Below are positions 51,001-57,000 of a DNA stretch of 64,000 bases, one piece after another. Within the stretch, counting starts at the first letter, position 1. Every line of letters starts with the position of its first letter. The stretch comes from Escherichia coli (GTDB taxonomy: Bacteria; Pseudomonadota; Gammaproteobacteria; Enterobacterales; Enterobacteriaceae). The position numbers were made by a program. The stretch lies in NCBI RefSeq assembly GCF_024298765.1, contig NZ_CP101210.1. One strand, 5' to 3'.

Positions 51001-54000
51001 TGACGGATGGCTGGCCGCTGTATGAATCCCGCCTGAAGGGAAAGCTGCACGTAATCAGCAAGCGATATACGCAGCGAATTGAGCGGCATAACCTGAATCT
51101 GAGGCAGCACCTGGCACGGCTGGGACGGAAGTCGCTGTCGTTCTCAAAATCGGTGGAGCTGCATGACAAAGTCATCGGGCATTATCTGAACATAAAACAC
51201 TATCAATAAGTTGGAGTCATTACCAATGGTGGTAACCGTATAGTCCCAAATAAAGATAAAAATGCTTCATTCTTACTCACCATTCCATTTGCTAAGTCTG
51301 TTATTGATGAAATATTGAGTAAAGAAAATCTGTCATGGTGCTCGAAAAATACTTTGCCAATATTGCATGCTTTTAGTATTAGAGCTTTAACCTCCTAATT
51401 GCTGAAGTAATGATACAAGCTACAGTATTGGTGACGAATCTATAGACAAGGAGATAAAAACCAAATATCAGAATTATTTTTGATAGTGCTGGTAAAGAAG
51501 CGGTGTTTGATATCAGCATGTTTATCGGAAAAAAGCTTACCTGGAGCTTTGAAAAATTGCAAAGCAGGGCCTGACAATGAAGGCCCTAATACTGTACTGA
51601 ATGTTAACTCAGTACCAAATTACAAGGAAAAGTATTTTTTCTGGTAAGATTCTGTATACATAATAAATCACCTTATAGTTACAATAGGTCAAAAACCGCT
51701 GTAGCCAAAGTTACGCTGGCCTGATGCTTTAGTGTCGAGCTTCGTCAAATAATCCAGACGTACCAATAAGCGCTGGTACTGCTCTGGGAAATCAGGCTCG
51801 TTAATATCCAGGATGTAACGTCCATTAGCAGGGAAATGAACTAATCCCTGGTGATCTTCCAGTTCCAACCCTAAGGCACTGTACCAGGCTCCGGTAATTA
51901 ACCCTCTCAGTGTGTCAGAGCGCTCATAGTTTCCCAGGTGGTAATAGGCGTCTTTGTTAAAAAAAGGCAGACGTGATAATGACATTTAAAGGACTGCGTA
52001 TATTCTTTCGCCCAGATAATACAAACCGCCGTTGCGTAGGTGCGTTTGCCTTGTTGTTTTTTACTGTGTTGATCTGCATTAATTTTCGCATTCAGCGAGT
52101 TACGGAAACGAGATATCTCTCCGGGGATCAGGTTAGGGAAACAGGTAATGATATCCCCGTTGTCAATCACAGGAGGGTAATGGAGATCCCCCCGTATTGC
52201 TGTTATTCTGGAAGTGTTTTTAATATTCGTATTGATAGTTCTCAGAGATTGGATTTGCCCCTATATTTCCAGACACCTGTTATCACTTAACCCATTACTG
52301 GCCCGCTGCCGTAGATATTCCCGTGGCGAGCGATAACCCAGTGCACTATGCGGGTGCCATTCGTTATAATGCTCGAACGCCTCTGCAAGGTTCTTTGCTG
52401 CCGTTAACCCGTCTGGTTTAGGCATGATACTGATGTAGTCACGCTTTATCGTTTTCACGAAGCTCTCTGCTATGCCGTTACTCTCCGGACTCTGCACCGC
52501 CGTGTTCTTCGGTTCAAGCCCTAATATCCGGGCAAACTGCCGTGTTTCATTAGCCCGGTAGCATGAACCATTATCCGTCAGCCACTCTACTGGAGACGCC
52601 GGAAGCTCGTTGCCGAAGCGGCGTTCCACCGCTCCTGGCATGACGTCCTGTACTGTTTCACTGTCGAAGCCGCCCGTAGTGACTGCCCAGTGCAGTGCCT
52701 CACGGTCACAGCAGTCCAGCGCGAACGTGACTCGCAGTTTTTCTCCGTTATCACAGCGGAACTCGAACCCGTCAGAGCACCATCGTTGATTGCTTTCTTT
52801 CACGGCCACTTTGCCAGTATGTGCCCGTTTCGATGGCGGTACAGCGGTTTTTCGCTCAAGCAACAGCGCATTCTGGCGCATGATCCGGTAAACACGTTTG
52901 GCATTGATCGCAGGCATACCATCAAGTTCGGCCTGTCTGCGAAGCAGCGCCCATACCCGACGATAACCATACGTGGGCAGCTCTCCGATAACATGGTGTA
53001 TACGGAGAAGCACATCCGTATCATCTGAGTGACGGCTGCGGCGACCATCTTTCCAGTCATCGGTTCGTCTGAGAATTACGTGCAACTGCGCACGCGACAC
53101 CCGGAGACAACGGCTGACTAAGCTTACTCCCCATCCCCGGGCAATAAGGGCGCGTGCGCTATCCACTTTTTTGCACGCCCGTATTCAACGGCTTCTTTAA
53201 GGAGTTCATTTTCCATCGTTTTTTTGCCGAGCAGGCGCTGGAGTTCTTTAATCTGCTTTATGGCAGCAGCAAGTTCAGAGGCAGGAACGATCTGTTCTCC
53301 TGCGGCCACAGCAGTAAGACTTCCCTCCTGGTATTGCTTGCGCCAGAGAAATAACTGGCTGGCTGCCACACCGTGTTGCCGGGCAACAAGGGAGACCGTC
53401 ATTCCCGGTTCAAAGCTCTGCTGAACAATAGCGATCTTTTCCTGTGTAGTACGCCGTCTGCGTTTCTCCGGTCCTAAGACATCAATCATCTGCTCTCCAA
53501 TGACTAGTCTAAAAACTAGTATTAAGACTATCACTTATTTAAGTGATATTGGTTGTCTGGAGATTCAGGGGGCCAGTCTACCAGGGATAATCGGGCAAAC
53601 AGGCGCATGGAGGCGATTTCGTACAGGGCATCTTCCATGGCACCGTCGCTCAGGTTGTACCAATGCTGCATGCAGTGAATACGCAGCATGGTCTCCAGCG
53701 GATAGGGCCGTCGGCCATTGCCCGCCTTGGGATAAAACGGCTCGATGACAGCGGTCATATTCTGCCATGGCAGAATCTGCTCCATGCGGAGTGTGGGCGT
53801 AAAATTGTCTCCGGGCATGATAGTCGTAACTATGCATTGTTCGGTCAGGAAGCGATCGGTTCTACGTGGTCGCTGGCGAAAATGAATATGTTCCTGCACG
53901 GGGAAGACAACCATAAAATCGAGTGGGGCGATACCATTCGTAACCCGAAGCTGCTCGATAAAAATGGCGACCTGATGCTGTTTGATATCGTGACCGCTAA

Positions 54001-57000
54001 CCCACCGTTCAGCCTCGATAAGTGGGGCCATGACGAGGCCGAGAACGATAAGTTTGGCCGTTTTCGTCGCGGTGTACCGCCGAAGACTAAAGGAGATTAC
54101 GCTTTTATCTCGCATATGATCGAAACCCTGAAACCGGGAACTGGCCGTATGGGCGTAGTTGTGCCACACGGTGTGCTTTTCCGTGGCTCCAGCGAAGGCA
54201 AAATTCGCCAGAAACTGATCGACGAAAATTTGCTGGATGCGGTAATTGGTCTGCCGGAGAAATTGTTCTACGGGGATTCCTGCAGCAATTCTGATTTTTA
54301 AAAAGCAGAAAGTGGATGATAAGGTGCTGTTTATCGACGCCAGCCGCGAATTCAAGGCGGGTAAAAACCAGAACCAGCTCAGTGAAGAAAACATCGAAAA
54401 AATCGTTAAGACCTACCGCAATGGCGATAACGTCGAGAAATACGCTTATCTTGCCAGCCTGAAAGAGATTCAGGACAACGACTATAACCTCAATATCCCG
54501 CGCTATGTCGATACCTTTGAAGAAGAGGATGAGATTGACCTGCTGGCGGTGCGAGCAGAACGCGAGCAACTGAAGGCGGAATTGGCGAAGCTGGAAACGG
54601 AGATGGCTGGATATTTGAAGGAGTTGGGTTATGGCTCGTGATTCGCTTTACCCAGTGAGCGTTAAAGCTGGAAAACCGATCCTTGGAATGCTACCTACAG
54701 GATGGCAAAAGTTATCATTAGAAAAGTGCTTAAATATAGAGGCAAGAAAGGCATATATACAAGATAATCAAGAGTATGACTTAGTTACAGTAAAGCGCTC
54801 CAGAGGTGGCGTAATAAGACGTGAGCATCTTAAAGGAAAAGATATCTCCGTAAAAAGTCAATTCTATATTAAAGAAGGCGACTTTCTCATATCAAAACGA
54901 CAAATTGTGCACGGTGCAAACCAGTGGGCTGGGCCATGTCGTTCTCGCCGGACAGCAGGCTCACCATGAAAGCACTGGAAATGGTATGGGAAACCCGTGG
55001 TAAGCCCGTCGGGGTGATGTTCCACAGCGATCAAGGCAGTCATTATACGAGCAGGCAGTTCCGGCAGTTACTGTGGAGATACCGGATCAGGCAGAGTATG
55101 AGTCGGCGTGGAAACTGCTGGGATAACAGCCCAATGGAGCGCTTCTTCAGGAGTCTGAAGAACGAATGGGTGCCGGCGACGGGCTATGTAAGCTTCAGCG
55201 ATGCAGCTCACGCAATAACGGACTATATCGTTGGATATTACAGCGCACTAAGACCGCACGAATATAATGGTGGGTTACCACCAAACGAATCGGAAAATCG
55301 ATACTGGAAAAAACTCTAACTCGGTGGCCAGTTTTTGTTGACCACTTCACTAAGACCGCACGAATATAATGGTGGGTTACCGCCAAACGAATCAGAAAAC
55401 CGATACTGGAAAAACTCTAACGCGGTGGCCAGTTTTTGTTGACCACTTCATACCGCAGGAGGCATGATGGAGAGCATTAATAATCAAGTGCAGTCGGTAC
55501 GCCAGTTGCTGGCCATTCCCCAACTGGCCATCCCAAGCTATCAGCGACCTTACCGCTGGGGCTCCAAGAATATCTCGGATCTCTTTACCGATTTGGCAAC
55601 CCATCAGGACAAGAGCGCCTACCGGCTGGGCTCGGTGGTGTTTCATCAGCACACCGATAGTGAGCAGGGCGAAATGCTTGATATCGTCGATGGTCAGCAA
55701 CGCACCCTGACCCTGATGTTGACCGTCAAGGCGCTGATCGAGGTGCTGGATAACGAAAATCGCAGTGGCAAAGAGAAGAGTATCCGGTTTCAACGTCAGG
55801 ATCTGCGTGAGCAATTGCAGGTCTTGCGTGGACCTATCGATGCGTTTATGCAGCGCCAGCGCTTCCCCAGCCGGGATTCGGAGTTCAACCTCAGACGTAA
55901 CTATCTGGAGTTGCGTCGGCTGGTGGCCCGCCCTGAGTTTGACGAGCAGCAAATTGACTTTCTGCTCAACCGCTGTCAGGTGGTCTGCTTTGTACTGCAG
56001 GATATCTCGGAGGCGTTCCAGTTCTTCGATTCGCAAAATGCCCGGGGGCGCGATCTGGCTCCTCACGATCTGCTCAAGGCATTTCACCTGCGCGAGTTTG
56101 CCGGTCATGAGGCCAATCTCAAGGCCGAGGCGGTCGCCCATTGGGAGCGCCTGCCAAGCGACGAGCTGGCCAATCTGTTCGCCCTCTATCTCTATCGGGT
56201 ACGCCAGTGGGCCGAGGGCAAGTCGGCCCGCTACTTTGGCAAGGGGGAGGTGGATCTCTTCAAGGGGGTCAACCTAGATCGGGTAGGGCATTATCCTTAC
56301 GTGGAGTCGCTGCGCATCGCCCACCACTTTGTCGATGAGTACAACAGCCAGTACCAGCGCAAGATTGACGGCCAGTACATGACGTTTCCCTTTCATCTCG
56401 ACCAGATGATCATCAATGGTCGGCGCTTTTTCGAGATGGCCGAGTACTACCAGACGCGGGTGGCCGCCATCGTGGCCGAGGAGTCTGATTCCGGCAAGGC
56501 GCAATCTGCCACCCTGCTCGGCGAAACGCTGACACCGATGGCCAGCAAGGTGCTATCGACCCTGGGCAGCTACGAGCGTCGCCACCGCACCGGGGATCGT
56601 TATGTGCGGGCCATGTTCGACTGCGCCCTGATCTTCTATATCGACAAGTTCGGCAGCCAAGGGCTGTCACTGGCCATCGAGAAGTGCTTTATCTGGGCCT
56701 ATCGCTGCCGCATCCGCCAGCAGGTAGTGCAGTTGGCAACCATGGATAACTATGTGCTGGAGCACAATCTGATCCGTGCCATTCGTGATGCTCGTCTGCC
56801 GGGAGATCTGCACGGCTTCCCTTTGCCTAGCATGAGCAGTCGAGAGAACAAGAACAATCGCAATGGTGCCGAAGATGAGCTGGTCGGGCTGTTTCGGGAG
56901 ATGAAATATTATGAATGATGCAGGCGTTCGCCCCTTTTCCATTCGTGCACTGCTTGAAGATCGCGCCCGCTATCTGGTGCCCATGTACCAGCGCAACTAT

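Follow-up and report, generated by a model that had tools for sequence, protein, structure and literature searches.

Does the run of restriction-modification (R-M) sequence at positions 53790–54917 of the window, the whole 64,000-nucleotide stretch of Escherichia coli DNA analyzed here, still encode anything that works, and how did it come to lie beside an intact pair of DUF262 genes? A first-pass annotation had described the region as a second type I system, dismantled by insertion sequences (ISs) next to an intact defense module. We are confident that it is an inert relic of a type I R-M operon, a pseudogene truncated at both ends, frameshifted, and enclosed by IS fragments. The remnant is real, non-functional, and unremarkable, i.e., an ordinary pseudogene in an E. 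coli chromosomal island. The relevant features of the window are as follows.

35790–41807, plus strand: intact type I system hsdM-hsdS-hsdR of the EcoR124 type (type IC), with ORFs of 518, 408, and 1038 aa
52250–53580, minus strand: complete IS2 (IS3 family), 1331 bp, with InsC/InsD ORFs and terminal sequences
53581–53789, minus strand: internal fragment of ISKpn26 (IS5 family), nt 150–362 of about 1.2 kb, both ends absent
53790–54268, plus strand: hsdM remnant part 1, approximately codons 223–382 of 507, from alignment to the BL12 and Klebsiella-plasmid hsdM
54269–54641, plus strand: hsdM remnant part 2, codons 384 (approximately) to 507 in another frame, from tblastn and Pfam
54631–54917, plus strand: hsdS N-terminal stub, codons 1–96 of 416, covering part of target-recognition domain 1 only
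54918–55349, plus strand: last 432 nt of ISEc52 (IS3 family), with the C-terminal part of the transposase and the right end (Pfam rve, rve_3, rve_2)
55348–55450, plus strand: further, diverged copy of the last ~103 nt of ISEc52, in tandem with the first and 95–96% identical (repeat search and blastn)
55464–56918, plus strand: DUF262 gene a, intact, 484 aa, GmrSD_N and DUF7834 (Pfam, 2e-28 and 9.3e-77)
56911–58953, plus strand: DUF262 gene b, intact, 680 aa, GmrSD_N (1.7e-29) and GmrSD_C/DUF1524 (1.5e-11) (Pfam)
58969–59736, plus strand: IS1, the right boundary of the DUF262 module, with InsA/InsB ORFs and 23-nt terminal inverted repeats; labeled IS1 by PGAP in comparison locus L004

Coding content of the remnant

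The remnant retains the last 285 of the 507 hsdM codons and the first 96 of the 416 codons of its hsdS. In alignment, positions 53790–54641 are 99.4% identical in DNA to nt 668–1524 of the BL12 hsdM, an intact E. coli gene of 1524 nt, and descent from a type I hsdM/hsdS pair is established by matches to N6_Mtase and by protein identities of 98–100% to the BL12 HsdM and HsdS. By tblastn, part 1 encodes HsdM aa 220–384 at 98.2% identity, spans profile positions 72–220 of Pfam N6_Mtase (6.8e-47), and keeps the NPPF catalytic motif, while part 2 encodes aa 384–507 at 99.2% identity and spans profile positions 227–310 (2.9e-22). The frame break between them, which had been placed near 54290 and is borne out by a MAFFT alignment, is a 5-bp deletion at 54268/54269 that removed one TACGG of a TACGG-TACGG direct repeat, and the original frame stops at 54299–54301. 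Among the elements of a functional HsdM (an intact frame, HsdM_N, motif I, and motif IV, NPPF/Y/W), only NPPF is present; codons 1–222 are absent, and the remnant has no promoter, start codon, HsdM_N domain, or AdoMet motif I (CGSGSLL). No promoter-like site beyond chance or shuffle expectation was found before the remnant ORFs, and no Rfam match to a structured RNA was found in 52000–60000.

The hsdS stub keeps its ATG, is 100% identical to aa 1–96 of the BL12 HsdS (tblastn), and runs on into ISEc52 as an open 112-aa ORF ending at 54969, which PGAP names either a hypothetical protein or an "S domain-containing protein". Measured against the 416 aa of the HsdS in the closest intact relative, aa 1–96 remain, with no Methylase_S Pfam match, in agreement with the first-pass annotation that only the N-terminal part of hsdS survives; its end point at 54925 was nearly right, the true junction lying 8 nt earlier, with ISEc52 starting at 54918. 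Searching the window with the BL12 proteins (tblastn) revealed no cognate hsdR, YecA-like gene, or M48 peptidase, and the sole match to the BL12 HsdR is the 25.6%-identical type IC HsdR at 38691–41807, so that the reported absence of an hsdR belonging to this system holds. Judged by its coding content, the remnant is predicted to have no capacity for DNA methylation or restriction because it has no AdoMet-binding motif, its reading frame is broken, its specificity subunit is incomplete, and the nuclease subunit is missing.

The remnant is already known as a pseudogene, and RefSeq annotates the exact sequence: the PGAP label for the hsdM part reads [quoted passage not shown], and partial IS5 and IS3-family transposase pseudogenes are annotated on the flanks of the identical sequence. 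It is no different in kind from the IS-scarred pseudogenes that PGAP flags in E. coli genomic islands. A literature search on the locus returned general reviews and an unrelated ISKpn25/hsdM case only.

Relationship to the intact type IC system

Within a type I family, sequences are highly similar; between families, they are not. The intact HsdM (35790–37346) scores 1150 bits against the EcoR124II M protein, which assigns it to type IC, and the HsdR of the same system matches TIGR00348 (1.7e-229). In contrast, the HsdM of the remnant's parent reaches 238 bits in the same comparison, falls outside type IC, and is 31% identical to the type IC HsdM of the window, which corroborates the earlier statement that the two hsdM genes are of different families. 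With 285.7 bits, the parent HsdM exceeds the TIGR00497 hsdM cutoff of 242.75, and its PDB matches show no close relationship to EcoKI, StySJI, or EcoR124. The parent resembles EcoR124I/II in the order hsdM-hsdS-hsdR and in the HsdM_N and N6_Mtase domains; its HsdR, however, comprises 1094 aa, as against 1038 aa in the type IC system, the two being 25.6% identical.

Flanking insertion sequences and junctions

As the first-pass annotation noted, the hsdM frame begins without a start at an internal IS5 fragment, 53790 adjoining ISKpn26 nt 150–362. This fragment is 99.5% identical (blastn) to the full-length ISKpn26 of comparison locus L007 and matches the Pfam DUF772 transposase (1.4e-12); both terminal inverted repeats and a whole transposase gene, the marks of a complete ISKpn26, are missing at 53581–53789. 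A separate full copy of ISKpn26 lies in the window at 41805–43004. On the other flank, 54918–55349 is 98.1% identical to the 3′ end of the ISEc52 annotated on a K. variicola plasmid (L006), and only these last 432 nt and the second 103-nt copy are found of an element that is complete with both ends and an orfA-orfB transposase. The last ~103 nt are single-copy in comparison loci L001, L003, L005, and L006. The left end of IS2 adjoins the ISKpn26 fragment, and no 5-bp target duplication surrounds IS2 in the window, where the flanks (...GAGAT on one side and CCAGG... on the other) differ. This IS2 appears in strain cq9 as a simple insertion within ISKpn26, and there an IS100 is inserted in the hsdS stub; these are later simple insertions in the remnant lineage.

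Junctions A (53789/53790) and B (54917/54918) both fuse internal IS sequence to internal gene sequence, and neither an IS terminus nor microhomology was found at either of them. A classical IS insertion or an IS-adjacent deletion is, therefore, unsupported as the origin of the junctions, and the final cuts would have been deletions or illegitimate joins in which the ISs, too, were truncated. On the Klebsiella plasmid LR890282.1, ISKpn26 interrupts hsdM near nt 395 and is oriented as in the window, and junction A is a 422-bp deletion relative to that arrangement. ISKpn26 is also present elsewhere in this locus on other plasmids. The evidence for IS involvement in the two large truncations is circumstantial, and an IS-driven first step in the decay is plausible; the claim that IS activity dismantled the system stands as regards the decay and its IS flanks, but finds no IS terminus at the junctions to rest on.

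Occurrence of the scars and intact relatives

Among 5,426 complete E. coli genomes, 62 carry junction A and 67 carry junction B, while neither is contiguous in any of 72,556 plasmids, which leads us to reject decay on a plasmid before transfer. The lone apparent plasmid match to junction A (LR890282.1) consists of two pieces 422 bp apart; it is not the scar itself but possibly an intermediate state. The 1126-nt remnant, including its 5-bp deletion, recurs at 99.9–100% identity in dozens of complete genomes, each sequenced independently; the scars are genuine and have been inherited. The outcome that the first-pass annotation had set against its own reading was an intact hsdM with an hsdR nearby; what was found is scars in 62–67 independent complete genomes and a nearby hsdR that is of type IC only.

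The search for intact relatives that it had suggested yielded BL12, Klebsiella IncF plasmids, and the E. coli chromosome WCHEC050613, with the DUF262 pair occurring with or without the type I system; a K. pneumoniae IncF plasmid was examined for intact architecture together with BL12 and WCHEC050613. The closest is BL12 (HsdM WP_045418880.1, HsdS WP_247155155.1, HsdR WP_099098095.1), whose hsdM is 99.4% identical and whose gene order is M-S-YecA-like-R-M48 peptidase, while the Klebsiella IncF-plasmid counterpart (HsdM WP_013214042.1) shows 97.6% DNA identity over the retained hsdM. In the window, hsdM and hsdS overlap in the same way as in these operons; unlike them, the window copy lacks hsdM codons 1–222 and HsdS residues 97–416, carries the 5-bp frameshift, and is without the YecA-like gene (PADLOC PDC-S12), hsdR, and the M48 peptidase.

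On Klebsiella IncF plasmids and on WCHEC050613, the DUF262 pair lies directly downstream of intact type I systems of the same family, separated from them by an ISEc52 remnant. Since the two are linked in relatives, the window would show partial loss within one block: the remnant and the DUF262 module probably formed a single ancestral defense block that lost about 5.4–6.3 kb. The suggestion of defense-island turnover is upheld in that a dead type I system stands beside an intact DUF262 module, the latter being no unrelated neighbor. The DUF262 gene downstream in BL12 differs from that of the window, the genomes with the exact DUF262 pair carry more diverged hsdM alleles (95–97.6%), and the ISEc52 fragment measures 432 nt in the window as against 248–317 nt in those genomes; no sequenced record is, therefore, the direct ancestor.

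Alternative explanations

The possibility that errors of sequencing or assembly produced the frameshift and the truncations, with an intact gene in the living strain, draws on the IS-rich context, which is hard to assemble, and on the position of the 5-bp indel in a short tandem repeat, an error type of some platforms; however, it is effectively refuted and carries a negligible probability, given that both scars and the deletion recur in the independent genomes counted above and that a 667-nt 5′ loss and a multi-kb 3′ loss cannot arise as base-calling errors. A working fragment, whether as a methyltransferase (truncated or orphan) or as a half-HsdS contributing to specificity, is very improbable. 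Half-length HsdS proteins dimerize and function in some type I systems, the NPPF motif and the C-terminal part of HsdM are kept, and the hsdS stub has an ATG and an open 112-aa ORF; however, AdoMet motif I and HsdM_N are deleted, the frame is broken, the stub of 96 of 416 aa falls far short of the protein midpoint, and no promoter signal exceeds chance. As a rule, a type I subunit cannot replace its counterpart from a different family, and the only other HsdM in the window is the 31%-identical type IC protein. We reject this explanation on domain content and frame. The partial hsdS lies within about 16 kb of the intact hsdS in the same island, which might suggest a silent cassette for phase-variable specificity of the intact system (an hsdS shufflon). 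Such a role has next to no chance of being correct: the remnant shares no direct or inverted DNA similarity with the rest of the window at E ≤ 0.05; the blastp match between the stub and the intact HsdS is not significant (E = 0.56); the adjacent genes include no invertase or recombinase; and the stub has exactly the residues (100% identity) with which an ordinary, full-length HsdS of the other family begins. With neither shared repeats nor an adjacent recombinase, the cassette was rejected.

A different objection concerns the block rather than the remnant, namely that the remnant was never contiguous with the DUF262 pair and that a BL12-like type I piece was joined to a plasmid-derived ISEc52-DUF262 module by illegitimate recombination. 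The remnant is closest (99.4%) to a system with a different downstream DUF262 gene, the DUF262 pair also occurs where a full ISEc52 precedes it and no type I system is in the vicinity, and there is no microhomology at junction B. Nevertheless, on both Klebsiella plasmids and an E. coli chromosome, this DUF262 pair is preceded by a system of the same type I family, with the same ISEc52 end in between, an arrangement for which deletion in place is the simpler account; we consider the join unlikely, though worth keeping in mind.

Proposed course of decay

Three lesions can be read directly from the sequence. The first 667 nt of hsdM and everything upstream are lost, and the broken end adjoins an internal position of ISKpn26; one copy of the TACGG tandem repeat is deleted from hsdM (5 bp); and hsdS from codon 97 on, together with any YecA-like gene, hsdR, and the M48 peptidase, is gone, the break falling at an internal point of ISEc52. 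Alignment to intact systems, the check that the first-pass annotation had recommended for sizing the deletions, gives 667 nt at the hsdM 5′ end, 5 bp, and about 5.4–6.3 kb on the 3′ side.

The parent family is arranged as hsdM - hsdS - (YecA-like) - hsdR - M48 peptidase, followed in many genomes by an ISEc52 remnant and a GmrSD-like DUF262 pair. As to the order of events, which we infer, ISKpn26 probably inserted into hsdM first, as in one Klebsiella plasmid. A deletion or illegitimate join on one side may then have removed the IS end and adjacent hsdM, and another on the other side may have removed the hsdS-to-ISEc52 interval. IS2 would have entered the ISKpn26 fragment later and, in this strain, may have been part of a further rearrangement. 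The DUF262 pair, still intact, would have been selected independently.

The remnant alone matters little, being one instance of gene decay in an IS-rich defense island. Its modest value is to document a composite defense block (type I R-M and a GmrSD-like DUF262 pair), common to Klebsiella plasmids and E. coli chromosomes, that is trimmed module by module, with the type I part destroyed and the DUF262 pair 99.5–100% conserved. When methylomes or barriers to plasmid uptake are interpreted in these E. coli lineages, the type IC system is the only one within the island to count as active.

The DUF262 pair

The first-pass description of the DUF262 module as intact is confirmed by reading frames of 484 and 680 aa. 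Near-identical strains and Klebsiella plasmids carry one and the same gene a product (PGAP WP_000443938.1). The Pfam matches of gene b exceed the curated cut-offs and combine DUF262 with a C-terminal DUF1524 His-Me nuclease domain, so that by domain content gene b is GmrSD-like, with the architecture of type IV restriction enzymes. The GmrSD_N plus GmrSD_C architecture is that of enzymes cutting modified DNA (PMC12707154), and the 680-aa protein shares it with GmrSD-family type IV enzymes such as GmrSD, BrxU, and SspE (DUF262 plus DUF1524; PMC12707154). Unlike these enzymes, the module here consists of two genes, the first of which encodes GmrSD_N and DUF7834 and no nuclease domain.

The type I family of the remnant carries YecA-like (PDC-S12) and M48-peptidase accessory genes. 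That its recurrent linkage to GmrSD-like DUF262 genes on Klebsiella IncF plasmids and in E. coli islands reflects functional coupling rather than a shared transfer history is quite improbable; if it were true, the 62–67 remnant genomes would form a natural knock-out series in which the DUF262 pair persists, and presumably functions, after the loss of its partner. A weaker, separate variant would have the 112-aa fusion ORF of the HsdS stub and ISEc52 expressed with some activity. The PADLOC matches of the DUF262 module are confined to the N-terminal domain, those of gene a being weak matches to HEC-06, Orf5, and SspE.

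Architecture and family of the remnant

As revealed by the ORF map and the raw sequence, the 52–60 kb part of the window is a patchwork of insertion sequences and pieces of genes, in which a truncated, frameshifted hsdM and a stub of hsdS precede two intact DUF262 genes.

Features of the 52–60 kb region (strand where assigned)
52250–53580, minus: IS2, complete
53581–53789, minus: internal 209-nt piece of an IS5-family transposase gene (Pfam DUF772)
53790–54641, plus: hsdM-like reading frame of clear HsdM character (Pfam N6_Mtase)
54631–54917: hsdS, beginning only
54918–55349: IS3-family transposase, C-terminal part (Pfam rve, rve_3, rve_2)
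55464–56918: DUF262 gene 1, intact (Pfam GmrSD_N and DUF7834)
56911–58953: DUF262 gene 2, intact (Pfam GmrSD_N and GmrSD_C)
about 58969–59736: IS1

The two hsdM pieces match positions 72–220 (6.8e-47) and 227–310 (2.9e-22) of the Pfam N6_Mtase profile. No Rfam family was found in the remnant region, and a promoter scan of the same region gave no signal above chance.

The window also carries an intact hsdM-hsdS-hsdR system at 35790–41807; with 1150 bits for its HsdM against the M protein of EcoR124II (PDB), this system is of the EcoR124 type (type IC). In contrast, the remnant's parent HsdM scores 238 bits against that protein and is 31% identical to the type IC HsdM of the window, while the two HsdR proteins share 25.6% identity. 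The remnant hsdM thus belongs to a different family from the intact one, as the first-pass annotation had proposed.

Comparison with intact relatives

Relatives were sought by megablast with the remnant as query. Among 5,426 complete genomes of E. coli, 519 gave a match, and among 72,556 plasmids 371 records did, 351 of them from Klebsiella. The nearest intact system, 99.4% identical, is that of E. coli BL12, which lies inside an integrase-bearing island adjoining chromosomal yecA-tyrP and comprises, in order, hsdM (507 aa), hsdS (416 aa), a YecA/UPF0149-like gene, hsdR (1094 aa), an M48 metallopeptidase gene, a hypothetical gene and a DUF262 gene (623 aa); a version on Klebsiella IncF plasmids is 97.6% identical.

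Alignment to the intact relatives showed that the window retains hsdM nt 668–1524. With nt 1–667, the HsdM_N domain and the CGSGSLL motif for AdoMet binding are lost; the break lies directly after this motif, and the start-less frame abuts an ISKpn26 piece (53581–53789). The frame break that had been noticed near 54290 is a 5-bp deletion at 54268/54269, where one unit of TACGG-TACGG is gone and the shifted frame runs to a stop at 54299–54301. Only codons 1–96 of hsdS remain, at 100% identity to BL12, and tblastn with the HsdR, YecA-like and M48 proteins of BL12 found no counterpart within the 64-kb window. The 3' loss amounts to about 5.4 kb relative to the apparent WCHEC050613 locus (L005), at least 5.7 kb relative to the apparent BL12 locus (L002) and about 6.3 kb relative to Klebsiella plasmid L003 minus its ISKpn26. 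The reading of a decayed second type I system was therefore confirmed as an observation and supported as an interpretation, with two refinements that concern the final cuts and the ancestry of the DUF262 genes.

The parent family carries two accessory genes: the YecA/UPF0149-like gene in the hsdS–hsdR interval (L002 12084–12767; L003 13298–13981), which matches the candidate defence gene PDC-S12 of PADLOC (1.4e-99), and an M48/SprT peptidase gene overlapping the hsdR stop (L002 16101–16856; L003 17315–18070). The YecA-like gene is absent from some members, such as L005; in E. coli, the island of this family adjoins the chromosomal yecA paralogue.

Junctions and insertion sequences

Junction A (53789/53790) joins ISKpn26 nt 150 to hsdM nt 668, and junction B (54917/54918) joins hsdS nt 287 to a point in ISEc52 432 nt from its right end. 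Neither an IS terminus nor microhomology was found at the two junctions, so the truncations cut into ISs and genes alike. On the Klebsiella plasmid LR890282.1, a full ISKpn26 interrupts the same-family hsdM near nt 395 and is oriented like the remnant's fragment; relative to this state junction A is a 422-bp deletion covering the IS left end and adjoining hsdM. ISKpn26 also occupies further positions of the type I locus on other plasmids (H53 among them), and insertion into hsdM would be a plausible first inactivating event. Dismantling by IS activity may thus hold for the first hit, but the final cuts are not IS-end junctions.

IS2 has no 5-bp target-site duplication in the window, where a frameshifted gene of the inovirus Gp2 family borders one of its ends and the ISKpn26 fragment the other; these mismatched flanks and the missing duplication indicate a probable IS2-associated rearrangement or inter-copy recombination in the window's lineage. 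In strain cq9, the same IS2 is apparently a simple insertion within the ISKpn26 remnant, and IS100 is additionally inserted in the hsdS stub; IS bombardment of the dead locus therefore continued.

The cq9 locus (L008, 1–16120) is the simplest form of the island, with type IC hsdMSR, ISKpn26 with IS2, the hsdM remnant, the IS100-split hsdS stub, an ISEc52 fragment, the DUF262 pair and Hhe. In the window, by comparison, the type IC system and the remnant are separated by some 9 kb of additional cargo together with a second, complete ISKpn26 (41805–43004).

Ancestry of the DUF262 pair

Copies of the DUF262 pair at 99% identity or above were found in 253 complete E. coli genomes and in 371 plasmids. 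In three records, an intact same-family type I system lies directly 5' of the pair, with IS1 and ISEc52 fragments between them: E. coli WCHEC050613, where the next genes are hhe, an anti-phage gene, and yecA, and the Klebsiella plasmids L003 and L007. The pair also occurs on a K. variicola plasmid (L006), where a full-length ISEc52 precedes it and type I systems are absent from the vicinity. The remnant and the DUF262 pair most likely derive from one composite ancestral block whose type I part was lost, given this adjacency in the examined records. A chimeric origin, in which the two came from separate sources, is less likely, though two facts speak for it: the ISEc52 fragment measures 432 nt in the window versus 248–317 nt in the intact-system records, and the window hsdM allele is nearest to that of a genome whose DUF262 gene differs. 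The module earlier described as a different, intact system is indeed intact, but it was most likely ancestrally part of the same block as the remnant.

The ISEc52 right end lies 13–25 bp 5' of the first DUF262 start codon (window 55440–55464) in every context examined, on E. coli chromosomes and Klebsiella plasmids (L003, L005–L008), and the operon promoter may reside in, or read through, this end; a consensus scan for this promoter gave no convincing site. In the window, the right end is duplicated in tandem (about 102 nt; 55246–55349 and 55348–55450, copies 95–96% identical), versus a single copy in the related loci L001, L003, L005 and L006. Copy 2 and the adjoining DUF262 start match L005 and L006 at 100% identity, whereas copy 1 is of a slightly different ISEc52 variant. 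The pattern suggests either that a second ISEc52 inserted into a truncated, older element or that unequal recombination took place.

Distribution and island setting

Of the 5,426 complete genomes of E. coli, 62 carry junction A and 67 carry junction B, and this recurrence rules out a sequencing or assembly artefact; neither junction was contiguous in any of the 72,556 plasmids. Residual function is likewise ruled out, as motif I is missing, the frame is broken, the HsdS stub has 96 aa and the cognate HsdR is absent, and a phase-variation cassette was rejected because the remnant and the intact hsdS share nothing. The remnant is an ordinary pseudogene, already annotated as such by RefSeq/PGAP, with partial transposase pseudogenes on both sides.

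The window is 99.96% identical across 30 kb to E. coli 2020CK-00188, in which the region is part of a large island bounded by an Ag43 gene and tRNA-Thr/proA; alignment to L004, apparently this strain, places the island end at tRNA-Thr/proA. Within this chromosomal island, metabolic and plasmid-type cargo (43000–50300 and 60500–64000) includes a partial gluconate permease, lutABC, dld, L-lactate permease, stbA and a plasmid-partition-like ORF, and this gene content suggests that an island of the thrW type captured DNA of plasmid origin.
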